A stretch of 49,098 nucleotides of DNA, filler included, from Catajapyx aquilonaris (Eukaryota): NCBI GenBank assembly GCA_000934665.2. It is 2 parts of 2 records of this genome, joined end to end, with 100 filler letters (N's around TTAATTAATTAA, not from the genome) between each part and the next. Parts side by side here need not be neighbours in the genome. Positions count along the whole stretch, not along the records: positions 24,616 to 49,098 come from JYFJ02005499.1; 1 more part is not named here. One strand, given 5' to 3'. The notes under the pieces were generated by a model that saw nothing but the letters and a program-made list of their open reading frames with translations, was not told the DNA's origin and ran no database searches. Both the position numbers and the translations under genes were made by a program. Shown here in pieces: positions 17,805 through 49,098 of this stretch (positions within the stretch are counted from its first letter, which is position 1; the number at the start of each line of letters is the position of its first letter).

Positions 17805-17836
<32 letters not shown>

Positions 17837-17858
17837 ATGATGATGATATGATGATGAT

Positions 17859-17903
<45 letters not shown>

Positions 17904-17945
17904 ACTTTTTCTTTTTTCTATTACCCCGTGATAACCTGATTAGAG

Positions 17946-17996
<51 letters not shown>

Positions 17997-24515: not shown

Positions 24516-24615
24516 NNNNNNNNNNNNNNNNNNNNNNNNNNNNNNNNNNNNNNNNNNNNTTAATTAATTAANNNNNNNNNNNNNNNNNNNNNNNNNNNNN
24601 NNNNNNNNNNNNNNN
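24516..24615. other. Assembly gap with artificial six-frame-stop linker
   Basis: Exactly 44 N + TTAATTAATTAA + 44 N = 100 bp. Confidence 0.95.
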
Positions 24616-24916: not shown

Positions 24917-26826
24917 CATGGTGATCCAACTTTATTGCCCCGACAGTTATTAGAAAAATCGCGCAAGCTGCTACTTTTTAAGCAGCTACTTGCTAAGAGT
25001 TACTTTCTCGAGCATCTGAAATAGCACCTGCTGATATTAGGTCAAATGCCCATGTACCAATTAATGAGGGGAAAAAGGGTCATACGTGGGGGAACAGGTC
25101 GTCTTCCGAGCCGGCCTGGGATGTGACTGCCCAAATGGGTCATCGCAAATAGAAATGGAAAAACCCTGAAATGGAAAGGTGCCCATCATGCATGTCATCA
25201 TCTCTTTAATTTCCTCATCTCCAAACTGATTCAGGTATTGGCCCTGAAAAGGGCCCATTTTGGTGTTTACTGGAGGGATTCAGATGAGGTGCTCAAAGTT
25301 GCCCCACCAAGTCGCTGGCAAGTCCTAGCACGGCCCAGGGTCGAGTTGTGGACATATGTCGGAGGGTCGATGGCGTCACAGCAGCGCAGGCATCCCTGAT
25401 CCTGTCCTGCAGGGCTGCTAGGCTGGGTGGCTCTGTCTCGTAGACCACCTGTTTCACATGCCCCCACAGGAAAAAATCCAGCGGGGTCAAGTCAGGTGAC
25501 CTCGCTGGCCAGGGCTGCAGACCTGCACAGCCTATCCACTTCCCAGGGAAGTGACGATCCAGCCAGGCACGGACGCTGTGGTGATAGTGCGGTGGTGCAC
25601 TGTCTTGCTGGAACCACATTGCCCACCTTGTCGCCAACGGCACATCCTCCAGGAGTTCTGGCAGGGTGTGGCACAGGAACTTCTGGTACCTCCGCCCCGT
25701 CAGTGTCCCCTGGAGGAAGTACGGCCTGACCATGTGGTCCCTGATGATCCCGCACCAGACATTGACCCTCCAGTTGTCCTGGAAGGGGGTCGGCCATACT
25801 CAGTCCGGGTTTTCCTCTGCCCAGTAGTGTGAAGGTTGCGGCGGTTCACCACCCCAACATGCGAAAACTGGACCTCCTCAGACCACAAGATGAGGTGACC
25901 TGGGGGGGCCCTCCTGGATAGTAGCCAGCTGCAAAAGGCGACGCATAGCTGGTGGTCCATTGGTTTCAGCCGGTGTACCATAGGAATCTTGTAGGGATGG
26001 TACCGAGCACCACGCAGATCACGCTGGACTGTACCAAAGGTAGAGTCGCACTGCCGCGCAATCTCCCGGATCCCAGCACCCGATTTGGCAGCCACATACA
26101 CCCTAATAGCAATGACGTGTGCCTCGTCTCTCGCTGGACGACTATGATCTGCTCCACGTTGCATCGGAGCAAGCACCCTGTGTTCCCGGAGGGGGCGCAG
26201 CAGGGTACTGGCGACATGCCTACTGGTTAGGCGGCGACCCGGATACCTTCGGGCGTACTCCCTGGCAGTATCTGCGGCGTTCTCTCCACAAACAGCGAAG
26301 AGCATCGCCATCTGGAGCATTTCTGAGTTGGTGAAAGCTGGTGCCAGTGCCATGGCTGCTGCTCTCCGAATGGAGCCCAGTACATACCGGATGGCCTATT
26401 TATTGACACAACCGTGTCTGTCCGGTGCGACGGATTAGCCCTCTGATTGGCAGCTAGTGACCTCATGTGAAACCCTCCAGCGAACACCAAAATAGGCCCT
26501 GTTCAGGGCCAACACATGAATCAGTTTGGAGATGAGGAAATAAAAGAGATAATGACATGCATGATGGGCACCTTTCCATTTCATGGTCGCAAGAGTTCGC
26601 ATCCAACCCCTTGTGATTGACCCATTTGGCCAGTCACAACCCCAGCCGTTGCGGGAGACGACCTGTTCCCTTTTTCTCGCTCATTAATTGGTATATGGGC
26701 ATTGGACCTAATATCAGCATGTGATATTTCAGAGACTCGAGAAAGAAACTCTCAGCAAGTAGCTGCTTAAAAAGTAGCAACTTGCGCGATTTTTCCAATA
26801 ACTGTTGGGGTGATAAAGTTGGATCT
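24917..26826 (-). mobile_element. Degenerate Tc1/mariner DD41D (rosa/Visitor) transposon with long TIRs
   Basis: ~340-bp TIRs (24917-25266 / 26482-26826). Transposase remnants 26353 to ~25340 with frameshifts: AREYARRYP, ILWSEE (first D lost), MWFQQD-x41-D (WPARSPDLTPLDFFLWGHVK). Confidence 0.88.
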
Positions 26827-29050: not shown

Positions 29051-29485
29051 TTTTCTGGTTGTGATTAAGGTACCATTGGCGCCTGGAGATAGGCAACCAC
29101 GCATCAGCAGACCATATGCGAAAAGTCCTAACTTGACCTAGACTACACCATATCTCAGTCACCGATGGGCAAATTTTTTCGTGCAAAAGGTGATGCACTT
29201 CACTTGGAATTGCCCTTTCGTGTGATCAGGCTGCGTGTTGTATTGCAGTTTCTGGTAATTTTGTATGAAACAATTACAGAGTTTTTAACTTCTTAAATAG
29301 TCATGGCATCTCCGTCAAGTATGATGGCACTTTTGGTGGGCTGGTAATTTCTGGGAAAACTCGAGGATATAAATGCATGTACCCAGCAAAAAGCAATTCA
29401 TACAATTGAACATGGAACTGACATTACCCTGGATATTGCAAATGCTAGCTCCAAGTTACTGATATTATGATAATTTATTTTGCAG

Positions 29486-29560
29486 TTTGGCTCTGCCTAT
29501 CTCGAGAGTGTCTGGTAGCAGTGCATCGGCAGAGAGTCACTTCGATGTCAAAAGCTAAAG
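29486..29560 (+). CDS. Repeat-array exon 1 (xWLCLSRECLVAVHRQRVTSMSKAK), unknown protein
   Basis: TTTTGCAG|...|GTAAAT, 75 nt, phase 1-1; 3' half homologous to the other exons. Confidence 0.55.
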
Positions 29561-29865
29561 GTAAATTAAAATAGGTTACTACAATCTTGACAGATGGCAC
29601 CATAATATTATTATCATTGTCCCCCCAAAAGGGCCCCTTCCTGCAACAGGGTTACTTAAATAAATCAAATAAATGTTATCATTGTCGTTTAAATTTATGG
29701 TTTGCAATTTGTGCTGTTGCTTCATGCTTTTATGATGGGATTTAATAATAAAATTACTAGGCACCATTTGTACAACAGTGGCAACAGATGTGATTTCATT
29801 TAATACTTTTTAAAATCAGAGAATGGTGTGTGCAATTAATTCACCAACTTATGCATTATTTTCAG

Positions 29866-29973
29866 GTTCCTTGAAGCAGAAGGCCCCATGCCAAGGGAAG
29901 CCTTTTAACTTGTCTGGTAATTGTGGTAATTTCGTGAATCGTCAGGGAGCCACATTGATGCCGAAAGCTAATG
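29866..29973 (+). CDS. Repeat-array exon 2 (GSLKQKAPCQGKPFNLSGNCGNFVNRQGATLMPKAN)
   Basis: TTTTCAG|108 nt|GTAAAT, phase 1-1, no stop. Confidence 0.7.
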
Positions 29974-30040
29974 GTAAATTAAAATAGGTTTTTACAATCA
30001 TGACAGATGGATCCTTATTAACATTGCTGTTTAAATGTAT

Positions 30041-30139
30041 GGGGTGGAATTTTCATTCCACTGCTAACTTGGCAGTATCAGTTCCAACACTGGTAACGCT
30101 TAGTTAGCAGTAACTAGCAGTGGGACGAAAATTCCACCT
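30041..30139. mobile_element. ~100-bp MITE A; copies at the homologous intron site also at 37187-37285 and 39062-39165
   Basis: TIR GGTGGAATTTTC / GAAAATTCCACC; ATG TSD clearest in copy 2; absent from the other units. Confidence 0.8.
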
Positions 30140-30187
30140 AAGGTTTTTAATTTGTACTGTTGCTACATGCGTTTATGCTATGATTGA

Positions 30188-33100
30188 GGCCCCTAGTCTG
30201 GTGTCCGGGGGTACCAGCCCCAGAAACGGTGGGGTAGCCTCTCCCTGGTAATAAGGGGGGGGGGGGGGGNGGGAGACCTGCCCCAAAAGTCTCCTCACCA
30301 GCTACCCCACTGGGGACCCTGGGATGGTGGCTACCACCCCTGTCCCCCTTTCTATCGCACCTGTCACGTGACAGCGCATCTGGGCCAAGGGGAGCCCTAG
30401 ACACATCCACATGCCACGCCCGGGAGGCAGCAAAAAAATGGATAGGGCAGTCAGTTGGCGGTACTTTCGGTTCAGAAAAGAGAGTGCAATGTACAAGTTG
30501 GACAAAATGCGACATGGAGGCTCTGGGTCTGCCACTTTTGACTTTCAAAGGGAACCTCAGGAGGTGCAATGCGTAATTCATGTTCAAATTATGTTTTTTG
30601 GGTTCCTCGTCTGCTATGAAGAAGACATCTTTCCGGAAAAACCCTCAATCTCAAGCAGGTTTGAAATACGGAGGTCCCAATTTCAAAAACTGAACCCTTT
30701 ATGAAAATCCCCAAGGAAGCTATTACGTATCAGCAAGAGGAGCTATTAGACAGTGACTTGGACACCAATTTCATGATCTATCATGTAAATAGGAATTATA
30801 CAGGGCACGCATCAATAATTGATGTTTTGAATATCACCGAAACTTAGTGCAAAAACAATAAATTATAAGACAGCATAAGAAAGATGATAGCACAGACAAT
30901 TCTGATCTGCTAGTCACATTTACAAAAAGGCCTTCTAAAATTGAAACAAAAAAAAGGCTAGATCTGCATAGTATGAATTTCATCATTGACAACATGTAGA
31001 GCAAAAAAAAAATTAGAATACGAGGACAGTCACCCTAATGAGGAAAAATCAATAATTTATTGTCAGAAAAAAAGAGCTCAATGAAAGCAGATTATAAAGT
31101 GGTTTTAACATAAGTCACTTGTCTAAAAACTCCTCTTGATTTCAATTTCAAACCCTTGAAAATAGTGCTTTTTGGCGGGCGCAAAATCTCATACGGTTCA
31201 TGTTAGGAGCATACTGTTATTGGAAACAAGTTGCTAACAAGCCTGTTTAGACTAATTCGACCACGCTGATTTCGAAAATCACTGTTAGTACTCTGGATTT
31301 TGGGTCCTTGTGCCCCAAAAACAAGATGGCGTCCAAGATTACGCCATTTCCCAAAATTACAACGTTTTGGCGTGTTTTACTCTAAACATCGCAAGCGAGG
31401 TATGGTTTTAGGCGTTTTCTGAGTCGCTAAGATCAGCCATGGGTGACCCAAGGTCATATGACATCATCAGAATCAGTAAATTTGAAATTGAGGGTACTTT
31501 TACGAATTTCAAAGGTCTTGCTTATAACACACGCATATAAGGCTGTCACAGAATACGTTGTGACTAGCAATATTTTTATCTATTATTTATGACAAATGCA
31601 TAGTCAAAGGATTATAATCATCAGACAAGTCCAGTATTACTAGTGTGCCAAGAATTGTGTACCTGTGGATCTTTTCGACCTGTGTACCTGAATACAGGGT
31701 GCGGAAACTAGGCGTGCCTTCACTTTTGGGAATGGTAGAGGGGTCCTAGGCGATCATTTTAAGTGCAGGTAATCGTGGGTCTCCGAAGTATTGTTACCGA
31801 GATAATTAGTATTTAAAAAAGTGCATTAAAGCATATCTTCTATGCCTAGGATACAGATTACAAAACTTCCATCGCCTAGGCCCTTGCTTGCTACACCTAA
31901 TGGGATCGTAACTTAAAATGATACTGCAGGGTAATACTAAATAATTAAAATATGACAAATAATAAGTCCCATGGAGAGACGCATACCTGCCAGGATATTT
32001 TATACCATGCATTTGAAGCCAATTATCTCAGCAACTACTACGCTGTGGAAATAAGACGTACTGTGACGCGGCCTAAGTGTGCGACATGCAGCAGTCATGT
32101 TACACTCACTACACAGTGCAAGACAGTACTGATGCGTAATAAAAAGTGCTCCCCAAGGATACCAGGGACATGTAAGCTACACAGTTTCTTGTTTTTGATG
32201 ACTGTATTCATTCAATGCGTGTATTAGCATGAGCTCTTAGATATGCTCTCTGTCACTTAGGGACAGAATAGAAGAGTCATTGGAGACAAGGTTGGAGGAG
32301 ACAGACTTCTCGAAATGTGTAGTTTGTGTAAAGGATGTGGGAGCCATTGTCTGAGTGCGAGGAACAAGGTCTCAAGCGACTTCAGGAGGTGACAGAGAAG
32401 AAGAGGGAATTATTTTTGCACACAATTTCCCTTAACCCTTAACTAGTAAGGTGAACTCGAGCAACGCAACTAGTAAGGTGGGGTCATTGGTGACCCCACG
32501 TGGTAATTGAATGATCTCGAATTCATAAAATTAAAAATTTAAAGCCATGTAAATTAAGTTTACATTATGTACGATGCGTAGGTAATAAAATAAACTTATA
32601 GGTCACGTTACTAAGTGTGATAGCTATGCAAATAGACGTCAACTGCGTATAATTATAGATACCTCAGTAGCAGCCGCCAACGCTAACAATTCATAAATAC
32701 GCTTTCTCTATATAAAGTCCCAAATGATGATGATATGTCCTGTACATTAATGCTATACAAGTAATACTTTCAAAATAACGGCTATATGACATTGTATAAG
32801 TATAGAGAGTGCAGGCCAAACCCATATCTGAAACTATTTACAAAATTTTTTATTATTGCATCATCTATGACAGGTTTGCCATTAGTACATGCCGTGCCAC
32901 CGTTTGAAGCAAAAAATAGAAGCTTCTCACTGGCAGGCATGAATCCAAGAGCAATGAGGAATCCAAACTTAACTAGTAAGGTGGGGTCATTTTTTTACCC
33001 CAGCCGCATATCACCTTCGTTATAGCCGTTTTTGGACCGCTATTAAATTTTTTGAAAAATCCCTATCCTTTCCCATTGTCCCTGTTTCCTTGCACCGGTG

Positions 33101-34303
33101 AATGAAGCGAAAATATATGGGCAATTCCACGAAAGAGCGGACATGGGGTGCGGTTCTTACATCTTGGCGCAGTTGGAATCTGAGTGACTAAAACCGATAG
33201 CATGTGGACCATGGTTTCCTTAGACATGTTAGTTTGTGACAGTATCATTCCCAACAACACAGTATTATTCCCAGAGTATCTAAGCGTGCACTCTGTGATA
33301 TCCGTTCAGCTAATGCGCATTGCCAGCTGGTTATTCGCTGTAGCGATATGTGAAAGGAAGAGAGACAGACGTTTCCATATAATTCAAGGGCACAAAATGC
33401 AACATCGACCTGTGCAATCACTTTGCTGTATTCATGAATGTGTGACCTTCCACAGCCACACCAAAAGGTATCCAAAAGGCAAAAACTGACCTAGTTCCTA
33501 TTTCAGTGCAGCGGAGCCATTATAATATTATGAATTCACTGACATTCCAATCTCCAAAAATTTATGCTACTCCCAGTAAATCACTGTAGGTTGTATGTAA
33601 CGATGCCGGGTGGTACATAACGGGTGGATATCTCAAATGTTTTCACGTTCAAAATGAGAATTCTCCCAATCTAATGGCATGATGAGGTTCCTCGCACCCT
33701 ACTGCCCCACATGCACTTAAGCTTTGAAACCTGTGCTGTCAGATTTCGCTGAGTTTCCCCCTAGTTGCATATACCCCAGAAACTGGTGTCCAATGACGGA
33801 TTGTACGTAACGAGATTTCAGACAATCGCACACGCGTGGATGGCCATCGAATGAAATTTTCATGATGTCCCTCACCTTCACATTTCTGCGCTGCATCTGA
33901 TTTTCCTAACAGTTAATCTATTACGGCAAGTACCTAGCCGCGGTGGACTCCTAAACACCTCAATACAGCTTCCGATTGTCTGTACGTAACACGTGGAATT
34001 GCCCATATACAGAAAACTGATGGTGGTATGCCACCCCCCTATAGCTCCCATAAGGGACATCACGGGGTAAAATAAAAAAATCTAAAAATAAATCAATCAA
34101 TCAACCTTATTTAAAGCAGCATACCCCCAAACCCACCAGACTCGGAGGTAGCTGCCCCAACTACTACCACGCCCCATCGAGGTTAGGCCCCACCGCCTCC
34201 CCCTGGTGGGGTAACGGGAAGGGCTAGGAGACTCCCGGGGCGAGGTCCGTACCCCCTCTAACGGTACCGGGATAGCCATTCCCCGGACACCAGACTAGTG
34301 GCC
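30188..34303. mobile_element. 4.1-kb composite non-autonomous DNA transposon with nested fragments (mariner end at 31693, piggyBac-like end at 32431)
   Basis: TIR GGCC(C/A)CTAGTCTGGTGTCCGGGG at both ends. Removing it restores the intron unit TATGATT..TTTAAAA. TSD ambiguous. Confidence 0.8.
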
Positions 34304-34752
34304 TTTAAAAAAAAGCTTTACTTGCCATCATTTGTTCATTCCTTTCCCAGTCACAATAACAGTGGCAACAGAAGTGATTTCATTTACCTTATTACCTCTT
34401 TAAAGCGGCATGCTGGTATAAGAAGGGGTCAATCAGCATGCCAGTGTAACCTGGGGGTGGCCGGCATGCCACAATAACAGAGGTAGATTTCCGTCATTTT
34501 AATCCTTGGTCAATGTTTTGGAATGCATCTGGTACTGTACTAAAATAATGTTATGCTGAAAAATGTCCGAGTACAGGCCTACAGGGCTATGAGAATATCC
34601 TAGTTCATCTGTTGCACATGGCATAGACTGTGACCAATCCCACATTCAGCCTGCTCTGAGAGGGGACTCCCCTCTAAACATACAACAGATCAAGGCAATT
34701 TCTTCAGTCCTTAGTTTTGCTCAAGAGTTCGCTGGTCGCAGATCTCATAGGC

Positions 34753-35237
34753 CAGGGCTATTCAACTAGTTTATGACAAGGTCCAGTATTTACCTTTCCT
34801 GGGCCACTGAAGGTCCGACCCCCCCCCCCCCCAAGGTTAAGATATGGATTTTATATGGTACCACAGGGTTCATTTTTGAAAACAGAAACCTGTGCAGCAA
34901 GGGTAGAAGGGCCTATCAAGACAGGACATATTAAGAAATTTGGGCCCTTTTATGATATTCTGTACAGGCGTGTAGGCATAAAAAATTTTGGCGGGGGGCC
35001 CATTTCATAAGCACAAGATGAACAAGCCGTAAATGGGGGGTTCAAGTTCACACGAGCTTAGGTGAATGTGGGAGATTTGAATGGGTGTGTATTTGATGAA
35101 ATTGGTAGCACTTTTTCCAAAACATCATGAGTTAGTAATTTCATGCTATTTCAAACTGTCCTGTATATCGGCGCAGTCCGGACAAAACTGCGTCGCTGTC
35201 AGGATCCGGACCGCTGTCCGCCAGTTGAATAGCCCTG
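34753..35237. mobile_element. hAT-type MITE
   Basis: CAGGGCTATTCAACT / AGTTGAATAGCCCTG; exact 8-bp TSD TCATAGGC. Confidence 0.9.
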
Positions 35238-35754
35238 TCATAGGCAATCAGAGGATCACTTGGTGTAGTGGTATTAATTTGTCTGAGAAGCCTCATTACT
35301 CAGATAATAAAATCCGAACCCAACGTATGAACTATCCCGGTAGGTATGCTTCCCTTCTTGCAGCCTTGCACTTTTAATTGAAAATGTTGCCATGAAAGAA
35401 TTTATCGAACAATCTCATGGGATGTGTCAGGTAATAGACGTGTCCTGGGCTGTACTGCACTGTCGAACGGGGAGCAATGCCTTCATTTGAGTAATAATAA
35501 TTTTCACAGAGGTTGTGATGATGCTGGGCTTAACCTGTTGAGGACGACAAGCATCATATGAGGATCTGTGCATTTCTGAATTTGGCACGCTAAAACGTGC
35601 ACAGAGAATTCGAACTTTGTGGGTCCAAATGAGGTTGACTATACTCCATCTCTTGGATGGTGACTAAACTACCATGGCACGCCCACAATCCACTGGGCGG
35701 GAGCCAAGCAGAGTTGAACATGCCAATGTGACGCGGGTGACGCGTCATCTTTTA

Positions 35755-36167
35755 TGTAAGCGAACACCCTAACCTGTCCTGTAAAGTCGGGACCCTTCAG
35801 AGTTTATCATGTACAGTGTTGTGGTCATATTATGTAACCGTAATAACAGTGTATAATAATATAATCCTCCTTGGGTAGTGCTGACCCTGGGGTATGCGGC
35901 ACGGACCTTTATTGTAACTTGTAGTACATAGTACAGTGAGACCACATTTTTGAAATGCCCAGGCCTACGGGCATGATGACAGGAGGGGATATGCAAGGTG
36001 CAGTGCAATGTCTCATGTGTGGTAGTCTTGTGAACTCCCCCGGGTGGTTTGTCTATTGGAGATACCACCCCGGACGAAGCCAGAGACTGCCTAACTCTGC
36101 ACAAGATGAAGGGGGTGTCCCCGGGCTGGGATCTAACCTGTGACCTTAACATCCGTGGGCGCATACA
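35755..36167 (-). mobile_element. Possible solo LTR
   Basis: TGTAAGCG ... CGCATACA terminal inverted repeat and AATAAA on the minus strand (~35910); no convincing TSD. Confidence 0.35.
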
Positions 36168-36647
36168 TTACCGCAGCACGACTCCGCCAAATAACGGTGT
36201 ATAGTGACTATGTAAACTTGTTAGGCCTATCGACATTCTGAGAGCCAGACGATTCTTAAAAACATAATTCTGGAACACCCTGTAGATGAATTTTTTCCGG
36301 CATTTTACATTCAAAAGGACCACCGCGAATTAAAATGATTCATTTTGGCGCGAAGTTGTTAAATTCATTAATATAACTCCTACATCGAATTTTGGACAAT
36401 AAGAAAGAAAAGAGCGCCACAGAAACAACAATAAACTTAGTTCTCAACAGGTTAAGAAAACCTCACCTTATACCGGCATACCTCTCTTAGACCGGCATGC
36501 TGGTACAGTCAGCAGATTATGCATTTCTTAAAGCTGGTTAACATCAACTTCACTGGGATGCCGTTTTAAGTGAGGTAATAGGTAAAACTATTAAATATTA
36601 GAGAATGGTGTGTGCATTTAATTCACCATGCTATGCATTATTTTCAG

Positions 36648-36755
36648 GCGTACTGAACCAGAAGGTCCCATGCAATGGGAAGCCTTTCAATGTGTCTGGT
36701 AATTGTGGTAATTCCGTGAATCGTCAGGGAGCCACATCTATGCCAAAAGCTGGAG
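36648..36755 (+). CDS. Repeat-array exon 3 (GVLNQKVPCNGKPFNVSGNCGNSVNRQGATSMPKAG)
   Basis: TTTTCAG|108 nt|GTAAAT, phase 1-1. Confidence 0.72.
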
Positions 36756-37010
36756 GTAAATTATAATGGGTTATTACAATCATGACTGATGGAACCATAT
36801 GATTATTGTTGTTTAAATTTATGGTTTTTAATTTGTGTTGTTGCTACATGGGTTTATGCTATGATTTATTTTAAAAGGTTTGCTTGCTCCATTTTTTCAT
36901 TCTTTTCCCAGTCACAATAATAGTGGCAACAGAAGTGATTTCATTTAATACTTTTAAAAATCAGAGAATGGTGCGTGCATTTAATTTACCATATTATGCA
37001 TTATTTTCAG

Positions 37011-37118
37011 CCTTCTTAAACAAGAAGGCTACATGCAATGGGAAGCCTTTGGAAGTGTCCGATCATTGTGGTAATTCCATGAATCGTCAGGGAGCCTCAT
37101 CGATGCCAAAAGCTGGAG
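37011..37118 (+). CDS. Repeat-array exon 4 (AFLNKKATCNGKPLEVSDHCGNSMNRQGASSMPKAG)
   Basis: TTTTCAG|108 nt|GTAAAT; the preceding uninterrupted intron is 255 nt. Confidence 0.72.
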
Positions 37119-37412
37119 GTAAATGATAATGGGTTATTACAATCATGACAGATGGAACCATATTATATATATTGTTTAAATGTATGGGGTAGAATTTTCT
37201 TCCTGACTGCTAACTTGGCAGTACCAGTTCCAACACTGGTAATGCTAAGGTAGCAGTATCTAGCAGTAGGATGAAATTTCCACCCATGGTTTTTAATTTG
37301 TTACTTGTACATACGTTTATGCTGTGATTTATTTAAAAAGTTTTGCTTGCCCCCATTTTTTCATTCTTTTCCCAGTCACAATAACAGTGGCAACAGCAGT
37401 GATTTCATTTAA

Positions 37413-37548
37413 CCCTGTAATGCCCACTGGGTCATATTTGGCACACACCATAGTGCAATTTTTGCAATTTTTGCAATTTTTATATTTCCTGTAAGTGCTA
37501 AATTGCTCTAAATGGTGTGCCAGATATGACCCAAGGGGCATTACAGGG
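37413..37548. mobile_element. piggyBac-like MITE
   Basis: TTAA-CCCTGTAATGCCC ... GGGCATTACAGGG-TTAA. Confidence 0.9.
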
Positions 37549-37603
37549 TTAAAACGGTTAAAAATCGGAATGGTGCATGCATTTAATTCACCATATTATA
37601 CAT

Positions 37604-38257
37604 GGACCTTTTAACGCTACGTCATCACAGCAAAGGTGGCCATCTTTTTGGCTGGCTAAAACTCCTATCTTGCCCGTGTTGTTGGCAGGGTTTTTGAGGT
37701 CTGCTGGGGTTTGTGAGCGTCTGCTGTGGCCCGTGGTGGGCCCGTGGCCTACCTACGGGGCTTCCCAACATGGCCCGCCTTTGGAACCACTGCCACATTA
37801 CGCTAAAAGTCTTACTATGGGAGGGGCAGAGAGGCGAAGCGATACGATACGCGATACGATACTCTCGTAGGTAAATGCTCGCTCCAGCTCGTGTAGTTGA
37901 CAGTGTTTGTGACAGTCTGTGAGGTTTGCCAGGGTTAATTAGTCACACTGCTACTTCCAGCAGGGAAATAAACACTGGAAATGGTTACTTTGTGCAAAGT
38001 GTGAGCTCCACAAATCCGTTGATGTTTGGTGGGTTACCAGCTTTTCCCGACCTTCTCCACGCTCCTGACCGCGGCAAACAATCTGGCCCTCCACTCCACA
38101 TCACTTTGGAACCGAAAAAAAGCCTGGTGTGGCTTATTTACTTGAGATATTGTTGCAGAAATAAGCAACACAGCATGCAGCCATTGCTGGTTCTGGCCAA
38201 CCAACAACATGGCCGCCGCGAAAAAATGTAAACAAATACGTCAAGGCTAAAAGGTCC
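37604..38257. mobile_element. MITE with AT TSD (ISL2EU-like)
   Basis: AT-GGACCTTTTA ... TAAAAGGTCC-AT; the empty site in sister units is TATGCATTATTTTCAG. Confidence 0.75.
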
Positions 38258-38268
38258 ATTATTTTCAG

Positions 38269-38376
38269 GCTTCTTCAACCGAAAGGCTCCATTCAATGGC
38301 AAGCCTTTGGAAGTGTCAGGTAATTGTGGTAATTCCGTGAATCGTCAGGGAGCCTCATCGATGCCAAAAGCTGGAA
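38269..38376 (+). CDS. Repeat-array exon 5 (GFFNRKAPFNGKPLEVSGNCGNSVNRQGASSMPKAG)
   Basis: TTTTCAG|108 nt|GTAAAT. Confidence 0.68.
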
Positions 38377-38434
38377 GTAAATGATGATGGGTTATTACAA
38401 TTATGACAGATGGAACCATATCATTGTTGTTTAA

Positions 38435-39051
38435 CCTTTTGACGACAGAGTTTTTGAGCCATTGCCTTACCCGATGGCCTGAGTTCTATTTCCCCTTTTC
38501 CGGAAATTTGATGAAGAGTGATATTGATGAATAATAATCCGCGGACTACCCGGATTACCCCCAGACTGCCCGGATTACCTAGTCACCTGATCAAAATGAC
38601 CCTGTGAGCCATTTCTGAGGGGGACATAGATCAAATTCCAACTTCACCGATTCTCTTGAAATCCTGTGCATTGACATATGCCCCCTCCCATATGGGTCAC
38701 AGGGTCATTTCGAGCACATAACTATAGGTGCGCCTTCATCCCATGGGGTGGGATACCAATGCACTGTATTTCAAGAACATCGGTGAGGTCGGAATTTTAT
38801 GATTTGACCTCTTCCCCCCACAAAAATGTGTCACAGAGTTATTTTTATCAGGAGACTATAGGTGCGTTTTTCATCCCTTGGAGTGGGCTATAATGCACCT
38901 AATTTCAAGAAAATCGTTGAGGTTGGAATTTTACGAGTTGAAAAATGTCCCAAGTTGTGAGGGCAAATCTCAAGACATCATATGATGTCTGTAGGCCCTG
39001 CAGCAATGTAAGCTCGGACATCATAATATGATGTCCGTAGTCGTCAAAGGG
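38435..39051. mobile_element. piggyBac-like MITE
   Basis: TTAA-CCTTTTGACGAC ... GTCGTCAAAGGG-TTAA. Confidence 0.85.
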
Positions 39052-39346
39052 TTAAATGTATAGGTGAAATTTTCTTCCTGACTGCTAACTTGGCAGTATC
39101 AGTTCCAACACTGAGATGGTTATGCTAAGGTAGCAGTAACTAGCAGTAAGATGAAATTTCCACCCATGGTTTTTAATTTGTTACTTGTACATACGTTTAA
39201 GCTGTTATTTATTTAAAAAGTATTACTTGCCCCCATTTTTTCATTCTTTTCCCAGTCACAATAACAGTGGCAGTGATTTCATTTAAAACGGTTAAAAATC
39301 AGAATGGTGCATGCATTTAATTCACCATGCTATGCATTATTTTCAG

Positions 39347-39454
39347 GCGTACTGAACCAGAATGTCCCATGCAATGGGATGCCTTTCAATTTGTCTGGTA
39401 ATTGTGGTAATTCCGTGAATCATCAGGGAGCCACATCCATGCCAAAAACTGGAG
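39347..39454 (+). CDS. Repeat-array exon 6 (xVLNQNVPCNGMPFNLSGNCGNSVNHQGATSMPKTG)
   Basis: TTTTCAG|108 nt|GTAAAT. Confidence 0.72.
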
Positions 39455-39715
39455 GTAAATTATAATGGATTATTACAATCATGACAGATGGAGCCATATT
39501 AAGTTATTATTGTTGTTTAAATTTATGGTTTTTAATTTATGGTGTTGCTGCATGGGTTTATGCTGTGATTTATTTTAAAAGTTTTGCTTGCCCCATTTTT
39601 TCATTATTTTCCCAGTCACAATAATAGTGACAACTGAAGTGATTTCATATAAATCTTTTAAAAATCTGAGAATGGTGCGTGCATTTAATTCACCATGTTA
39701 TGCAAATAGTTTCAG

Positions 39716-39811
39716 GCGTATTGAACCAGGAGGTCCCATGCAATGGGAAGCCTTTGGGAGTGTCCGATAATCCGAATAATCAAGGAGCCACATCGATGCC
39801 AAAGGCTACAG
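39716..39811 (+). CDS. Repeat-array exon 7 (GVLNQEVPCNGKPLGVSDNPNNQGATSMPKAT)
   Basis: TTTCAG|96 nt|GTAAAT; net 12-nt in-frame deletion. Confidence 0.72.
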
Positions 39812-40068
39812 GTAAATTAAAATTGGCTATTACAATCATGACATATGGTACCAGTTTATTATCATTATTGTTTCAATTGATGGTTATTAATTTGTGTTGT
39901 TGCTACATGCGTTTATACTTTGATTTTTGGAAAGTTCCACATGCTATCATTTGTTCATTTCTATCCTAATCAGAATAACAGTCCCGATGGAAGTGATTCC
40001 ATTTAAAACTCTTTAAAACGAGAGAACAGTACCTGCTTATAAGTCACCTTGATATTCACTATTTTCAG

Positions 40069-40176
40069 ACTCATTCATCCGGTACGTCCCATCGACTATG
40101 ATACCTGAGGAAATTACAGATACTTGTGATAACTCCGTGCATCTTCAGGGAGCCCCAAGCATGCCAGAAACCAGAG
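40069..40176 (+). CDS. Repeat-array exon 8 (DSFIRYVPSTMIPEEITDTCDNSVHLQGAPSMPETR)
   Basis: TTTTCAG|108 nt|GTAAAT; divergent but stop-free. Confidence 0.68.
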
Positions 40177-40890
40177 GTAAATCAAAATACTACAATCATG
40201 GCATATGAAACCACTACCAGATTATCAATATTGTTTCAATTCATAGTCATTTCTATTGTCATTTGTGTTGTTTCGACATTTACTATGATTTTTGAAAAAA
40301 GTCCACATGTCACCATCTCTTCATTTTTATCAAAGTCACGATAACAGTGGCAACAGAGTTGATTTCATTTTAAAATGTTAAAAACCGTTCAGGGTGACTC
40401 TCAATCTGGACACATAGGTAAATGGATCATAGTGTTGGTTTCCAGTTGTGCCACGTGGCAGATTGTTAACAGTCAGACAGGTTGAGTCGGTACTACTGGC
40501 AACCAACAATATCCACAATGGACCTCCCTAGTTTCAAAAAGCAGTAAAAAACATAACAGCAGAGGTAATTTAGGTTTTAGTTAACCCTCAGAGACCGGCA
40601 CACTAAATTATTATCAGCTTTGTGACATTTTTAGATCAACACCACGCTTCTGGATGAAATGTACGCATGGTTATTTTTTCTAACAATCTGGGCAGATGTC
40701 CGTAGACAATGGATTGCCCTTTAAGACCATGGCCTATGCTAGACTTTGTCAGAATAATTTCAAAATAATGGTTAAGTTTTGTAACAACAGATGGCAGCAT
40801 ATCTCAGGCTCTGGCTTTCTGATCTTCTTATATTTCTTGATTGCATTATTGTAAATTAGGACTATCACTCAACCAAAGTAACTCTTCTGA

Positions 40891-42721
40891 AGGTCTGAAC
40901 TCATATCGACTTGAAACCACGACTTGTGCGTCAAAGTCGGACTTGCGCGTGAAATTCGTACTTTTGCATGCGTTGGAACGCCGTTTCTGCATGCGTGGAG
41001 GCCTCTTGTTGACATTGGTTGACCGTGGTTGTCCGTGGTTGCCATTCACCGCGCGCAACTGTTGGCACCCCAGGCCTGCCCCAGGTCGATCGATATGCAA
41101 CAATTCGATGCAACACCGTTGCTACGCGTTGTGGGTTCGTGTTGACATTCAGCGCACGCATCTGTTGGCCCCTTGTGCATGCGTCTTTGATCTATTCGAG
41201 GTAGATCCTACGCGCAAGCACATGCCTCACGCACGACCGGTAACCAATCACAGTCCTCGTGTGTGGTCACGTGGGTCTCCCCTGCATGCCACGCCCACTG
41301 CCCCCTTCTTATGGCACCCCTGCCAATTGACCACTTTCAAGTTTCCCGCCAGTATAGAGGCGGAATCTGGCTGGCCGTCAAAGAGCGACGAAATGCTATC
41401 ATCCACTGGAGTCTCGTATTGCCTGCCCATTGTGGATGGGGCCTGGTCGTCAGCATCTGGTGGTCTGACCAAGAGGCTGCTGATCATCTTTCACAGAAAA
41501 GCCAACAGTAGGCCTATTACAAAGTTGCGTTTTCCTCGTCTTCCTCCTTTGTATAATATGTTCATTAAGTTCTGACCACTTCCACCAACGAATAAAAATT
41601 TCCCTAAAAAGGCCTCATTTTCACCTCCTTCCAAAATATCGGGCGCGCCCCCTAACCACGGTAGTCTTTCGCAATATGGATGAAACTTGATATGCAGCGT
41701 TATGTCATAGTTCTGTACTGCCGTGATTTTTTTTTCCTGCAAAATTCGAGATGGTCGAGGAACATTCTTGTGCTCTCTTGATTCGGAATGGCCCAACTAT
41801 TTCGAGAAATGTGGTTTTTTGACTGCCCCGAGGTCAAAAATTAAGTTCAGACAAACGGAATGCTCATCATTGTGATTTACGAGTGACCTAAGGAACATAG
41901 TAATAGCGATGAAATTCCATGGACAAGAAGAGTGTTGCATATAGATGTAGTGTCAGTCATTACCAAAAAAAGTTTAATTAAACATTTCAAAAAATAATCT
42001 AATGAAAACCCAATAGCCAATTAATAGTAGTCCCTCGTCTTCATCACTCCTCAAAAAATATCGGGCTGGTCTGCCCCGTATCCAGCCCTCCACACCACCA
42101 GACCACCATACGTGCTAGAGAAGAGCCCATTCACAATGGGCGGGTAATAGAGAGCATGTTGCAATCGACTCAAAATTCACTCTAGGGGCAGGCTGCCATG
42201 AGGCCGATTGACTTCAGACACACGGAAAGGGAAGGCAGGTCACTCCTCACATTAAAAAAAAAAAAATCTCAGGATGATCTGCCCCGGGGCCAGACCACCA
42301 GATGCGGACAGGCAGAGCCCATCCACAATAATGGTCAGGTAATACAAGACTCCCGCGCATGATCGCATTTCGCCGACATTTTGACATGATGCCTGATTGC
42401 GCCGCTAGAGGTACGAAACTGGAACGTGGTCAATATAATATATTGTTGACATTCGATTGTTGGCACTGTTCGATTATCGTACTGCACGACATACTGCGCA
42501 TGCGCCCTCGGGGATGGAACTGCACGTGCATGCGCAGCCGGCGCAGCGGGATGGATTCGAACACGCATAAGTTCGACTTTGACGCATAAGTTCGACTTTG
42601 ACGCACAAGTCGATATGGAAACAGCCCTCTTTCCCATGCAAACAAGGCCATGGAAACGCACATGCAAAAGTACGACTTTGACGCACAAGTCGTAGTTTCA
42701 AGTCGATATGAGTTCAGACCT
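40891..42721. mobile_element. PIF/Harbinger-like non-autonomous element
   Basis: TIR AGGTCTGAACTCATATCGACTTGAAAC.ACGACTTGTGCGTCAAAGTCG at both ends; flanks TGA / TTA. Confidence 0.8.
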
Positions 42722-43631
42722 TTACTCTCCCGAATTTTGAACATTTTGGGATTTTCTAATTCTGCTTGACCTATAGTGTTGAGAAAACATCACCTCCGCT
42801 GCTAATTTCCACGCTAGCAGGGTGAAAATGCAGCCAAAAGGCGATGTTCTGAAGCCACAACACCTGCATCCGGTCGCGATGCGCCGGTCCCGGCTGCACC
42901 GTCGCAGTCGCCTTTCACCGTGTCTGTAGCACTCTCCGGTGCCGCCAAGGGAAGGGTCATCTCGCACGCCTTGAAGTCGAAGGTGATTATAATAATGGAG
43001 AGCCTTGGAGTCCTGGCTCTCCATTATGATAATTGCCTTTGTGCACTTTTCATTTTTACCTCATATTTTACCATCCGGCTCTCTACACTTTAAAGGCGCT
43101 GTACGCATTAACTACGCACCGGCGCCCAAAACTAATTGCACATCCCTATATTAGTTTTACTAGTACTATAAGTCTACCTGGCGATTGTCCGCAAGTTTCC
43201 CTTCACCCTGTATAATCTTTTATTGTAACATATATTTTGGGATTTGGGATCATACAGAATTTACTAGGGAGTGGAAAAAAATTCAAATGTCTTGCCGGGC
43301 TCTGAGGGTTAATAGGTCTGGAGACTCGACAAGTTTCATTGGAATGGCGTATGTGATGCGTTGCTGCTGCTGTGGGAGATGCTGCCCGAAGTTGCACACG
43401 TGGCATCTGCAGAGGAGAAAACAAGTTGTGTGGTGCTTAGCCACGCGGAAGTTGATCACAGAAGTGCTGGACATGCTGGACATTTTGCCTTTCCCCAACT
43501 CCAAGAAAGAGTCTATGGTGGACAGCCCAGAGACCTCAAATAATGCTGCGTCCTTCATTACGCTTGATGTACTGGAGAGAACCACGGGGGAGGGAGATTA
43601 TTATCAGCTTAAAATTGTGCTTGCTACTTAA

Positions 43632-44044
43632 AGGGACACTCCACTCAAAAAACAAGTTTGGCTGTAAAAATCGGGCAAAATATCCTGAACCCGAAGGTGC
43701 AATCCGTTTTTCGCTACGCAGAACGGTAATCCCAGGGCAAGGGGTCAAAGTGGGGAAATTCAAATAGTGTGCTAGAAGCTGGCCGTCCGCCAGCGACGCC
43801 CTCAGGACCTTGGGAACTGGAGGGCTGCTCCCCCTGCCCGCGCGACTAGGCCCATCCCAGAGCGGTGCAGCCCTCCAGTTCCCCTGTTCCCCGCGAGGCG
43901 GCGCCGCTCATTAGCAGACGACACACTTTGACACCTCGCCCTGGGATTACCGCTCCGTGTAGCGAAAAACAAATTGCGCTGTCGGATTCAGGATTTTTTG
44001 CCCGATTTTTAGAGCCAAACTTGTTTTTTGAGTGGAGTGTCCCT
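43632..44044. mobile_element. Kolobok-like palindromic MITE
   Basis: TTAA-AGGGACACTCCACTCAAAAAACAAGTTTGGCT ... -TTAA; >100-bp inverted arms. Confidence 0.88.
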
Positions 44045-44138
44045 TTAAGGAGCACACACAGAAGTCGACTGATATTTTTGTTACATAAACTTGATGAGTG
44101 TCCCTTCTCACTGTACAATTTGAACACCATTGTTCAGT

Positions 44139-44985
44139 TACTTACTTTACCCGGCATTTCTTTAATCACTTGAACACGAATGAAGATATCGAATTGAACT
44201 GAACTAACCTCACTCTGTGAGAAAGGAGATTGACTCACAACATGTGGTAGAAATGGCCACCATTTACATCCAGGCAGGCCTGAACACGACTTCATATTTT
44301 GGAAGGACCTGACCAGCATGTACTGAGGCACTGCCTGAATTTCTTGGATAAGGTTTTCTTTCAAGGTGTCAATGGATTGTGGTTTGTTTCGGTTCACGTG
44401 TCGGCATGGCCGAAATGCAGACCTTTCTCGGCGACCAAGTCATTTTGTAGGGATTTTGGCCACGAAGGTCAACCTGATCTTATGCCGCCTAATTACTTCT
44501 TATAAAATTCAGGGTAATTGTGTTTAATAAGATTAACATGATATCAGACAGGTAAATGTTATTTTATGTTTGAAAGAGATCTCAGTTATGTAACCTGGAA
44601 GGAGGTCCTCCAAAGGGGTTGTTATGGCCCAGAAAGGGGTAAATTAAAAATAAAGAAATACATAAGCTAAAATAAATCAATAACTTCTTATGGGGCTAGC
44701 TGAAAGAGAGAGTGTACCGAAACAAACCACTATTCAGCAACGCCTTGAAAGAAAACCTTGTCCAAGAAATTCAGGTTCAGGCAGTGCCTCAGGATGTGCT
44801 GGCCAGGACTGTCCAAAATATGGAGCTTCATGTTCAGGACTGCCTGGATGCAAATGATGGCCATTTCCCGCACATGTTGTGAGGCCATTTCCTTTCTCAC
44901 ATAATGAGGTTAGTTCAGTTCAAATTTTGTTGTGATATCTTCATTCATGTTGAAGTTATTAAAGAAATTCCGGGTAAAGTAAGTA
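44139..44985. mobile_element. Palindrome of two inverted mariner-transposase 3' ends
   Basis: Arms 44139-~44400 and ~44715-44985 are reverse complements; they encode NKPQSIDTLKENLIQEIQAVP-like C-terminal remnants. Confidence 0.65.
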
Positions 44986-45142
44986 GTGGGATAGTGGGGG
45001 CAGTTTAATTTATTTAGTAGCAAGTTGAAACTAGGGAGGTTCATTATGGACACCCTGTACAATCCAATTACCTGTGTGTCCAGACCTTAGTCACGCTGTA
45101 GAATAGTATTGGCACATGTCACCTGGAAATTTTTATTTTCAG

Positions 45143-45247
45143 CCGTGTTCGCCCTGAATATCCCGATTCTGCAAGGGACAGATCATGGAATTGTGCCTTA
45201 TATAGTCTATCATTATCCTGGAGCCTCACCTATGCTACCACCTCCAG
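45143..45247 (+). CDS. Repeat-array exon 9 (AVFALNIPILQGTDHGIVPYIVYHYPGASPMLPPP)
   Basis: TTTTCAG|105 nt|GTAAAT; flanking intron homologous to the other units. Confidence 0.6.
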
Positions 45248-45294
45248 GTAAATTTATATAGGTCATTATAATAATGACAAATGTAACCAGATTA

Positions 45295-46913
45295 CACTCT
45301 GCAACATGATATTTGTCCATGGGAATCCAATGCTATTTCCATGTTCCTTGGGTCACTCGTAACTCATAATGACCAATCATTTTGTCTGGGATTTGTTTTT
45401 GACCTTGGGGCAGTCAAAAAATCTAAATCCTCGAAATATAGGGGTCATTACGAATCATGTGGACCAAAATGTTGCTAGACCATCTCAGTTTTTGATGAAA
45501 TAAATCACAGCTGTACCAGGGAGCATAATTATACTACATAAGAGGCGCAAACATTCGATTTTTGCGTCTCTCTGTTTATAGGGCGTTGCCAAGCGGCCAT
45601 TTTGAAGTGTGTGGTGCGCCAACGAGGTATAAATAGGGTACAGGCAGGCCGTCAAGGTCCGCGGAGGTCCGCCATCTTTGATGGTTTTGGCTGCCATGGC
45701 AATACACGGCAATAACAATTTACTTACCCATTCCAATATCGAATTCAATTTCGCGCGTGTTCTTGCCGTGTAGTTGCCATGGCAGCCATAACCATCCAAG
45801 ATGGCGGACCCTATTTTTGCCTATACCCTATTTATACCTCGTTGGGGCAGCACACACTTCAAAATGGCCGCCAGCCTTGGCAACGCCCTATAAACAGAGA
45901 GACGCGAACATCAAAGGCGCCGACAGAAGTTTGCGCCTCTTATGTAGTATATGCTCCCTGGCTGTACACACATGCCACAACACTGCATATAAAGTTTCAT
46001 TCATATTGCTCAATACCATTGGGAGGGAAAAGCGCGACATTTTGAAAATGGCTGAAAATGAGGCCTTTTTTGGAGAAATAAAAGTTAGGTTAGTGAAAGT
46101 GGTCTAAACCCAATAAATATAGATATCAAATGAATGAGAATCACCAGGAGAATGTTACTATGGAATTTGTTTTCCTCTAAAAAGTAACCAGAAAAATGTG
46201 GGGCATTCCATTCGTCACATGTCCAAGAATTTGGCTCCTTGAGAATTAATGATAAATCTGCGAAACAACTCTAATATTTTCTCGCAAACCATGCAAGCAC
46301 CAGGCGTCACACTGAACATAATAAACCTTGTGTGGGTCACAACTCGTGTCACCAAATATGACTGACGTAACTCAAATACATTACTAATTGTCGGGGTCCA
46401 AATTCTTGGGACATGTGAATGAGCTTGTGGCATATAGAATGCCACACATGTTTTGCTGGTTACCTTTCGAGGAAAACAAATACCATAGTTGCATTCTCCT
46501 TGTTTCTCTTTCATTTTTGATACCTATGTTTATTGGGTTTTGATCACTTCCACTAACGGGAAAAAATTCTTCAAAAAAGACCTCACTTTCGGGCATTTTC
46601 AAAGTTTAGCGATTTTTTCCCTCCCACCGGTATTGAGGGATGTGAATTGAACTTGATATGCAGATTTATGGTATTGGTGTGTACAGCTGTGATTTCTTTC
46701 AGCCAAATCCGAGATGGTCTAGCAACATTTTGGTCCACTGGATTCCAAATGACCCCTAAATTTCGAGGATTTTGGATTTTTGACTGCCCCAAGGTCAAAA
46801 ACAAATCCCATACAAAATAATTTGCCATTATGAGTTACGAGTCACCTAAGGATGGATAAAAATGGAGATGAATTCCCACGGACAGGAAAAAAGTTGATTT
46901 TTGTTGCATAGTG
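45295..46913. mobile_element. CACT-terminated (CACTA/EnSpm/Chapaev-like) foldback element
   Basis: CACTCTGCAAC / GTTGCATAGTG, 3-bp TSD TTA, long inverted arms; a related fragment lies at ~41490-41940. Confidence 0.8.
45517..45960. mobile_element. P/Galileo-like palindromic MITE nested in the CACT element
   Basis: CAGGGAGCATA ... TATGCTCCCTG; exact 7-bp TSD GCTGTAC. Confidence 0.85.
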
Positions 46914-47123
46914 TTATCAATATTGTTTAATTTTATGGTTTTTAATATGTGTTGCTTCTGCATGTGTTTATGCTGCGATAAAAAAAGTTCAATGTGCCAC
47001 CATTTTTCATTACTATCCGAGTCACAATAACAGTGGCAATGGAGCGATTTGAGTTAAAACTTTAAAAACCATAGAAGGGTAGACTTCCTGCATATAATTC
47101 ACCTTGATATTCATTATTTTCAG

Positions 47124-47207
47124 TCTATTTCAACCACACTGTCCCATACAGGACACAGTCTCGTAGCTGTGATGGTCAGGAAGTCCAAACAATGACAACA
47201 GTTCGAG
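47124..47207 (+). CDS. Repeat-array exon 10 (VYFNHTVPYRTQSRSCDGQEVQTMTTVR)
   Basis: TTTTCAG|84 nt|GTAAAT; followed by another homologous intron, implying an exon 11 beyond the next insertion. Confidence 0.62.
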
Positions 47208-47438
47208 GTAAATTAAAATAGATCATTATAATAATGGCATATGTAATGAGATTATCATTATCATTTCAATTTATGGTTTTAATTTGGGTTCTTGCTATGT
47301 GGGTTTGTGCTCTGATTTTTTTTTTTTAATGTTCCACATGCCACCATTTGTTCATTACTATCCCAGTCACAATAACAGTGGCAACAGAAGTGATTTCATT
47401 TGAAACTTTTTAAAATCAAAGAATGGTACCTGCATGTT

Positions 47439-49098
47439 GGTCATTCCACACGAAAAGGGACATTTTGGTTAAAATTGAAAGTTTGAAAATAAATAATTTT
47501 TCTCTCATTTTAAACTTTCATAGCCTTGAATTTTATGTTTTGTACGAAAGAAATTTGAAAAAAAATTGGGTCAGTGTTTTACAAGTCCTGGAAGGAAGTG
47601 CAATCCTCTTGATGCTAGGTAGAACATGATTGAGAGTACTTGCCCTACCTCAGTGTAGTACGCCCTCCCCCAAAAAGTGGAGTGGTGGGGGTAATGAACA
47701 AAATGTGATACAAAATCTCCATTAAGATAATCTGGACATTAGAATGGATAATTATGAATTGTAACATTGGAGTTAGGGGGACACGAAAGTTTAAGTTGAT
47801 TTGACAGTTAACAACTGAAATAAATATGATTACACCTTGGACAGTGAATTTCCGTGGGATCTGGTAAATATTGATGCCACTACGTTTGTATGTTACTTAG
47901 CAGGATATTAATTTCAAAAATGAACCTGAGGGGCCACACAAATCCTAAGACAGCATTAAAATTAATTACAAAAAATCTACCACAGAATTTTTAAATGTTT
48001 ATCACGGCTTGCAGATGTCGAATTTTCTCTGCATTTTTAATGCAGGGATTTAAAAAACCATTTCACGTTAATTGAATTGAAATTTTTTATTGTAGCACAT
48101 TCGGCCGTTTTTTGGCAAAAGGCATTAACCCGCATCACTGTAGTTTGGAGATAATCGAGTTTGAATGGTTTTCCCCTGCCAAAGTCAGGTAATATAGTGA
48201 GACAAATGCTTGGTGTCATTTTACAACCATGTCAGAATTCTCCTCCTTTGCAATGCACTGACATTACTGATTCATGGGTCCAAGGTCAGCAATGTGACCA
48301 AACATGTGGATAATGCCCTTTGCCAAGACAATAATGATTTGACTAGACATGCCTTTTTATAGGTCACAAGGCATTAAGCCACCCCATACCATCCATTAAA
48401 AATGTGATTTTCCTGCAAAAATGGGGTTGTTACTAAAAATCTTTTTACTCCAAAAATGCTTAATGTTGAAATTTCCCCTTGACGCTATTATTATTCCAAT
48501 AATTCCTAAGCAAACATACTGTGTGAGACTTAGTAGCCTACGGTAAAATAAATAAATGTCATAACATCGCAATTTGAGTAACACGACTGAAATGAAGAGA
48601 TTGCAGTATTGGAACACAAATACGTGAAACACGTCATCCTCTGTTACACTACAAAGAAATGCCACATATCATGATGTTTTTTTCGGTTAAGGCCACTTTA
48701 TTAATAATATAAATGCGTCACAATTACATTTGTATTACAATTCAATGAACGTGGCCCGTTAGGGTTCATAAGTGCTAAGAAGATCCTGCGAACTCTCGCT
48801 GGCAGGCAAGTTGTTCCAAAACATCCTGCGGTTTACTGGCATTTTAGGGACCAATAGCTACAATGTAATCTTTCTTCCTTTTTGCGATTCCGCGTGGTGC
48901 TGTAACTGTTGATTGTGGAATGACAAGTCCCGCCTTTTTCTTCTGTGTATGCGTCCTCTGTGAATTTTGTCTTGTACTGCATGAGTCTTGATCCCTGTTC
49001 TAATCTGGCTTCAACCACATCTTTAAGTAAGGGGAGAGATTTCCCTACCTTGGTGTTTCTGGAGATCACCTGATCAGGCCATTTTCGAAAATCTGCCA
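47439..49098. mobile_element. Left part of a DNA transposon interrupting intron 10 (GGTCATTCCA terminus), running off the window
   Basis: Intron homology stops abruptly at GAATGGTACCTGCATGT; terminus similar to the reverse complement of 2341-2351. Confidence 0.5.

Follow-up and report, generated by a model that had tools for sequence, protein, structure and literature searches.

A tandem array of short exon-like cores, each bounded by splice signals and each open in the same reading frame, lies on the plus strand of a 49,098-nt stretch of DNA from Catajapyx aquilonaris (GenBank assembly GCA_000934665.2), referred to here as the window. From this sequence we conclude that the ten cores are, or recently were, spliced exons, and that something also preserves their reading frame. 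We put at about an even chance the proposal that they form an array of cassette exons translated into an orphan repeat protein, which would be disordered and perhaps secreted. Transcription, translation, secretion and any alternative splicing are steps that we infer from the observed anatomy of the array and from the conservation of its signals and frame. The window consists of two records joined by a 100-letter filler (24516-24615), and its parts are not necessarily neighbours in the genome; the array lies within the second part.

An initial annotation of the window had listed ten exons, every one a multiple of 3 nt long. The same ten and no others, with unchanged coordinates and lengths, were returned by a script that required a GTAAA[TC] donor, a YAG on its 5' side, a distance between the two that is a multiple of 3, and an open phase-1 frame (Table 1). 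Together they comprise 1008 nt, ie 336 codons. The size given for the repeating unit of exon plus intron, about 360 bp, was also borne out. Tandem Repeats Finder reports a period of 357 at 39188-39926, and an nhmmer DNA profile built from six units gave 16 matches at E<1e-6, which correspond to pieces of about 11 units over 29504-47441, every one on the plus strand. A blastn search with one unit returned the same copies.

Conservation of the splice signals

The pyrimidine-rich CAG acceptor and the GTAAAT donor that had been described are present throughout the array. CAG is found at 10 of 10 acceptors, in the longer form TTTCAG at nine of them (unit 1 has TTGCAG), and GTAAAT is found at all ten donors. 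The alignment statistics given here and below were obtained from eight of the ten units; units 1 and 9 were excluded for their truncation or divergence, and for three of those retained a script joined the pieces on either side of insertions. In this alignment the longest invariant runs are 6 nt each. One is TTTCAG, which leads up to the start of the core, and another is GTAAAT, which leads on from its end; one further 6-nt invariant run exists.

The diverged units (1, 8, 9 and 10) are the most informative in this respect. Their flanks have diverged by 19-25%, yet all 12 splice bases are kept. The chance that 12 of 12 motif bases would be intact, calculated from the flank identity of the unit itself, is 0.034, 0.078, 0.034 and 0.067 for units 1, 8, 9 and 10, respectively, and the product of the four is approximately 6e-6, so that neutral change is very unlikely to have left the motifs whole in these copies. 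The corresponding value for all ten copies under a star tree is 1e-8.4, which overstates the significance.

Reading frame, length and base composition

The phase-1 frame contains no stop in the 336 codons of the ten cores, as the initial annotation had stated, compared with totals of 16, 19, 16, 9 and 16 stops in the other five frames. Relative to the consensus, new stops have arisen at 3, 5, 8, 3 and 3 unique positions in those five frames and at none in the phase-1 frame. One antisense frame is also open in the consensus, and it has gained 13 stops at 8 unique positions. In simulated neutral evolution, in which substitutions matched those observed in number and spectrum, all eight units came out open with a probability of 0.017 under a star tree, and of 0.028 when only unique events were counted.

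Length is preserved in the same way. The cores that deviate from 108 nt measure 75, 96, 105 and 84 nt, and every length is divisible by 3. Three indel events are seen within the core in the eight-unit alignment, each of 12 nt, whereas only 6 of 21 in the intron are multiples of 3. On the 5' side of the acceptor the frame is broken by stop codons and by indels of 1, 2 and 5 nt. The invariant splice motifs, the single open frame and the changes of length in multiples of 3 together uphold the assignment of the cores as symmetric phase 1-1 exons.

The GC content is 0.46-0.51 in all ten cores, compared to 0.29 in the introns. Substitutions within the core are near balance, with 54 from G/C to A/T and 44 from A/T to G/C, which indicates that the GC level is being held. 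Codon-usage log-odds, trained on the ZNFX1-like and MIF4G open frames of the window, were positive for the phase-1 frame in 10 of 10 cores, and amounted in total to +33 bits, compared with -35 and -61 bits for the other two frames. Because the boundaries of frame, length and GC all coincide with the AG and the GT, the cores are best taken as exons, spliced now or recently. For the further step, to protein coding, it is the preservation of frame and length, and only that, which argues.

Proposed origin and maintenance of the array

We suggest that the array is lineage-specific and arose when a single symmetric (phase 1-1) exon and the intron belonging to it were duplicated in successive rounds. 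The cores would be translated as cassette exons, each contributing one module of about 36 residues to a probably disordered, perhaps secreted, orphan protein. Selection would maintain only the AG and GT signals, the open frame, lengths in multiples of three and an exon-like GC content, while the amino-acid sequence of the modules would drift or diversify. Since every exon is symmetric, the number of modules could shift by unequal crossing-over, or by exon skipping, without a break in the frame. Strict preservation of signals and frame, combined with freely changing sequence, would fit a disordered repeat protein that needs only to be read through. The earlier description of the array as still expanding is not supported. 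Even the two most similar units, 3 and 6, differ by 6% in the exon and 10% in the intron, and insertions resembling transposons lie between units.

Sequence change in the cores and the encoded peptide

A number of observations weigh against this explanation, among them the pattern of substitution. The pooled proportions of synonymous and non-synonymous differences (pS and pN) are 0.267 and 0.271, giving a ratio of non-synonymous to synonymous change (dN/dS) of 1.02; two control frames gave 0.75 and 1.03. Counted by parsimony, the first, second and third codon positions have undergone 1.06, 1.21 and 1.15 steps per site, without a 3-base periodicity. The synonymous share of codon differences is lowest in the phase-1 frame (0.14, compared to 0.20 and 0.17), and BLOSUM62 replacement scores in that frame are unremarkable, being no better than those of the shifted control frames. 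No amino-acid constraint is visible in the encoded peptide, and purifying selection is not seen. The codon-usage scores of the individual cores, 1.7-6.1 bits, are under the mean of 6.9 for real exons in the training genes, and barely above the best-of-three scores of the array introns (mean 1.5, maximum 4.6).

Change has also been faster in the cores than in the introns. Units share on average 71% identity in the former and 79% in the latter, with the core lower in 24 of 28 unit pairs. Parsimony steps per site number 1.14 in the core and 0.80 in the intron (p=7e-4), a difference that holds for A/T sites alone and with CpG sites left out, and 31 of the 102 core columns are invariant, compared with 124 of the 250 intron columns (Fisher p=0.0013). 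This pattern could also reflect diversifying selection combined with homogenised introns. Protein-level positive selection is not shown, because third codon positions change as fast as the first two. An extension of this idea, which we think quite improbable, is that the array is the arthropod counterpart of diversity-generating secreted repeat genes, its modules being mixed by symmetric splicing into numerous isoforms of a secreted, glycosylated surface or defence protein. Gene conversion would then keep the introns alike and selection would keep the exon bodies different, with synonymous sites hitch-hiking. The greater change in exon than in intron and the strict frame would fit, but third codon positions are equally fast, so that these features are no proof.

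The peptide module is about 36 residues long and rich in Asn, Gly, Pro and Ser. N-x-S/T sequons are present in 4 of 10 copies; the initial annotation had noted N-x-S sequons in some copies. The C-x10-C pair, which it had given as a feature of the core, does not hold up as such, both cysteines being kept in only four of the ten. The absence of a recognised domain was confirmed: no Pfam family was matched by any of the ten cores at E<=10. The Tau/MAP tubulin-binding repeat (PF00418), considered for its resemblance to N-V-x3-C-G-x3-N, was rejected on the same search. Searches among proteins likewise came back without a relative. In a profile search of 1.84 billion proteins there were 11 matches at E<=0.001, all of them confined to short stretches of which each protein has 6 to 30 copies; four of the 11 were inspected and judged unrelated, three being a D-x-CGN-type motif in long repetitive proteins and the other a different repeat. 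Word-indexed searches with a 49-column alignment gave 943 longer candidates and one of near length, none at E<=1, and there was no usable match in the ESM Atlas. Two degenerate patterns, one intronic and one exonic, found 0 matches among metagenome contigs. AlphaFold2, run on an eight-row alignment, returned a mean predicted local distance difference test score (pLDDT) of 59.8 and a predicted template modelling score (pTM) of 0.12, without secondary structure. As for the surrounding gene, neither a promoter nor a poly(A) site was established, nor a constitutive exon on either side of the array, and the acceptor of unit 5 has the end of an insertion close on its 5' side (Table 1).

Alternative explanations

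Several of these observations would be accommodated if the exons were spliced but non-coding, in a long non-coding RNA or an untranslated region, with bodies that drift and splice signals that alone matter. We think this explanation unlikely, though less so than those that follow. It agrees with the strong conservation of the splice motifs, with a dN/dS near 1, no codon periodicity and faster change in the core than in the intron, and with the failure to find a homologue, a fold, or an established start or end of a coding gene. There is also a formal likeness to the tandem IPW-A exons that host SNORD116 in mammals, which (PMC4742849) are likewise short exon plus intron units in tandem, with splice sites conserved and exon body not. 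The introns of the present array differ in that no small nucleolar RNA, microRNA or conserved structure is found in them; in addition, the present cores keep their frame and their length modulo 3. Against Rfam, the interval 29400-47500 had five weak matches at E<=5, none in sequence shared by the units. Five introns gave a consensus fold of -11.9 kcal/mol over 268 columns, to which covariation contributed unfavourably. An intronic small RNA would have accounted for the conservation of the introns. Non-coding exons fit less well because they would have no reason to keep a frame or a length divisible by three. A stop-free frame, when five others gained stops at 3-8 unique positions (simulation p about 0.02-0.03), would be left unexplained, as would the restriction of core length changes to multiples of 3. 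The cores might instead be relics, ie once-coding exons of a gene dead or dying by transposon invasion, whose signals and frame are still mostly intact for lack of time. The lack of amino-acid constraint, the growth of two introns to 6.7 and 5.0 kb by insertion, the insertion end next to the unit 5 acceptor, the failure to find flanking exons and the strong divergence of units 1, 8, 9 and 10 are all in its favour. Those same diverged units nevertheless retain every splice base, the open frame and a GC of about 0.48 are kept, and composition shows no drop toward that of the surrounding DNA, where GC is 0.29; we regard a relic as unlikely.

A tandem repeat that was never spliced, either satellite-like or internal to a mobile element, with an open stretch flanked by AG and GT through chance, would account for the repetition and conservation of the entire unit, "intron" included, and for the orphan peptide. 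It is very unlikely, given that conservation within the unit is highest at the splice motifs and that frame, length modulo 3 and the step in GC coincide exactly with the AG/GT boundaries. Least probable of all is a mutually exclusive cluster of the Dscam type within a larger gene, with its constitutive exons outside the array or the window. In Dscam-type clusters each variable exon is accompanied by a selector sequence to which a docking site is complementary, and exactly one exon is included per transcript. The present array resembles them in its tandem paralogous, alternative-looking exons of equal ancestral length and in its conserved intron sequence. However, its exons are symmetric and self-contained, so that none, one or many would keep the frame and exactly one is not required. 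Complementarity of the docking type to the conserved intron blocks was sought in 24.0-29.5 and 47.45-49.1 kb and none was outstanding; about 270 windows were scored, with best z-scores of -3.3 to -3.8, and reverse-strand matches did not exceed 13 nt. Nor is there a folded domain for the exons to complete, no constitutive flanking exons were found, and the array ends 1.66 kb short of the end of the window.

Comparison with other symmetric-exon genes

Translated cassette exons, the explanation preferred here, would be a case of the general process by which symmetric exons for repeat or disordered parts of proteins are duplicated in tandem; exons of phase 1-1 are enriched in metazoa (PMC6547436). 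In common with that process the array has exon plus intron repeated head to tail, phase 1 at both ends, lengths divisible by 3, one module per exon and a low-complexity peptide without a confident fold. It differs in that the module is without relatives in the searches made, that its exon bodies outpace its introns in sequence change, and that the array is known from genomic sequence alone.

The micro-exon genes (MEGs) of schistosomes offer another comparison. Schistosome micro-exons range in size from 6 to 36 bp. The exons of the array, at 75-108 nt, are outside this range and are not micro-exons, and they are paralogous copies of one unit where MEGs are made of unrelated tiny exons. PMC4350168 describes a coding region consisting mostly of very small symmetrical exons, secreted products whose mature part has a dN/dS of about 1.1 or higher, and an apparent restriction to platyhelminths. 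Points of similarity are symmetric exons that permit skip variants, an orphan peptide and a dN/dS near 1; a secretory start would be another, if the weak candidate for one (see below) were real. Against this, the genome here is of arthropod type, outside the platyhelminths to which MEGs appear to be restricted, and in the array both secretion and alternative splicing are putative.

Limits of the gene

The initial annotation had the host gene continuing past the window. The array itself does not, since it ends with a truncated eleventh unit that has no exon (Table 1). Sequence features at either end (the candidate first exon, TATAAAT and AATAAA in Table 1) weakly suggest a self-contained gene at about 29.4-47.5 kb with a secretory start. 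The ATG of the candidate first exon is the only one in 23.9-29.9 kb to be followed by both a hydrophobic start and a phase-1 donor. The reading from it passes through the unit 1 acceptor, and the suggestion is a weak one because the hydrophobic residues translate the T-rich tract before that acceptor and because such motifs are common in AT-rich DNA.

Two other arrangements of the coding sequence were considered and set aside. A free-standing open reading frame (ORF) of 53 codons, from the ATG in AGAATGGTG to a stop just past the donor, runs unbroken through units 2, 3, 4 and 6 and no others; elsewhere it is interrupted by indels or stops ahead of the acceptor. A second exon at a strong CCCAG acceptor-like motif in the intron would be a stretch of 59 nt, as counted on the alignment, and it contains stops in most units. 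At the last unit the CCCAG stretch, in phase 1, reads 14 codons and then TAA, and is a speculative last exon only.

Table 1. Positions of the array, its units and associated features in the window
Feature	Position	Strand	Remarks
Whole tandem array	29504..47441	+	About 11 units of ~360 bp in pieces, split by insertions
TATAAAT, speculative promoter element	29368..29374	+	99 nt 5' of candidate ATG; one of 2 TATAAA motifs in 28.9-29.5 kb
Unit 1 as alternative first coding exon	29467..29560	+	In-frame ATG at 29467, 31 residues, hydrophobic start, phase-1 end at unit 1 donor
Unit 1 core, 75 nt	29486-29560	+	Just the 3' 57 nt align to the unit; TTGCAG acceptor, GTAAAT donor
Unit 2 core, 108 nt	29866-29973	+	
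Two insertions in intron after unit 2	~30190-34309 and 34384-36571	.	74-nt unit tail between them; gaps between nhmmer pieces
Unit 3 core, 108 nt	36648-36755	+	Source of the consensus peptide in the initial annotation
Unit 4 core, 108 nt	37011-37118	+	
Insertions around unit 5	37409..39157	.	Hairpin-type, ~140 bp, 37409-37547; ~37604-38254; ~38435-39051; unit resumes at 39052
Unit 5 core, 108 nt	38269-38376	+	A at donor -1; insertion end 14 nt 5' of acceptor
Unit 6 core, 108 nt	39347-39454	+	
Unit 7 core, 96 nt	39716-39811	+	12-nt deletion
Unit 8 core, 108 nt	40069-40176	+	Diverged, 69% identity to consensus core
4.7-kb insertion block, intron after unit 8	40369..45099	.	Internal repeats in common with 45300-46896
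Unit 9 core, 105 nt	45143-45247	+	Most diverged core; both splice motifs intact
1.6-kb insertion	45294..46906	.	Terminal inverted repeats 45314-45516 and 46884-46681, 85% identical
Unit 10 core, 84 nt	47124-47207	+	Two 12-nt deletions
Eleventh unit, start only	47390..47441	+	Cut off 5' of its core; end of array
AATAAA, speculative poly(A) signal	47488..47493	+	47 nt past array end; motif common in AT-rich DNA

Insertions within the array

Seven stretches not homologous to the unit separate its pieces, and all seven are within intron parts, a point in favour of the cassette-exon explanation. The array had been described as broken up by transposons. Non-homologous insertions are indeed what lies between the pieces, and two of them have inverted repeats or repeated copies in the window. 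One insertion has terminal inverted repeats, and others have repeats in common with each other. ORFs inside the insertions at 30190..36571 gave no Pfam match.

An element of about 100 bp with hairpin ends (GGTGGAATTTTC / GAAAATTCCACC) is found at approximately 30031-30135, 37176-37280 and 39052-39157, at an identical intron position in units 2, 4 and 5. Its single position in the three introns indicates that it was inserted once, before duplication of the unit, and was then copied along. Between units 4 and 5 there is a palindrome of about 130 bp (37416-37544), which gave weak Rfam matches resembling plant microRNAs on both strands, far under the gathering scores, and is probably a miniature inverted-repeat element.

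Neighbouring loci in the window

A ZNFX1-like helicase gene on the plus strand (13619-23953) contains one open frame of 926 codons and further exons, with ZNFX1, AAA_11 and AAA_12 domains recognised by Pfam. Its last open frame, 23402-23950, matches relatives of ZNFX1 at their RZ-type end and is closed by a stop codon. Identity to the best of the relatives found, from Darwinula stevensoni (an ostracod), a mayfly, a sawfly and a gecko, is no more than 38-42%. On the 5' side of this gene is a MIF4G-domain gene, also on the plus strand, with open frames at 3891-5417 and the domain at about 3.9-4.6 kb (Pfam E=8.5e-13). In window coordinates the array starts 5.5 kb past the end of the ZNFX1-like gene, an interval that includes the filler at the record join, where two runs of 44 N each occupy 24516-24559 and 24572-24615 and where DNA relevant to the 5' flank of the array may be absent. 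As the gene and the array are on opposite sides of the join, their positions do not imply that they are adjacent in the genome. That the array is a 3' part of the ZNFX1-like gene is unlikely given the RZ-type end and stop, and the two are probably separate.

Between the filler and the array, at 24923-26825, is an element with inverted ends of 368 bp (82.6% identical). It encloses two minus-strand open frames of 168 and 231 codons, neither with a Pfam match, and contains a WPARSPDLTPLDFFLWG-type motif which we take to be reminiscent of Tc1/mariner-type transposases. At the other end of the window, 97-1645 holds AT-rich microsatellite arrays with periods of 6, 9, 12 and 140, within two arms of about 550 bp that are mutually inverted and 87.5% identical.

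Significance

If the array is not expressed, it is a warning that exon-like tandem repeats with an open frame can persist without coding evidence. If it is expressed, it would represent an unannotated orphan gene in which only splice signals, frame and composition are preserved and the peptide is free to change. It would then be a clean natural example of a repeat protein built and resized by symmetric-exon duplication, and would allow constraint on translatability to be tested apart from constraint on sequence.

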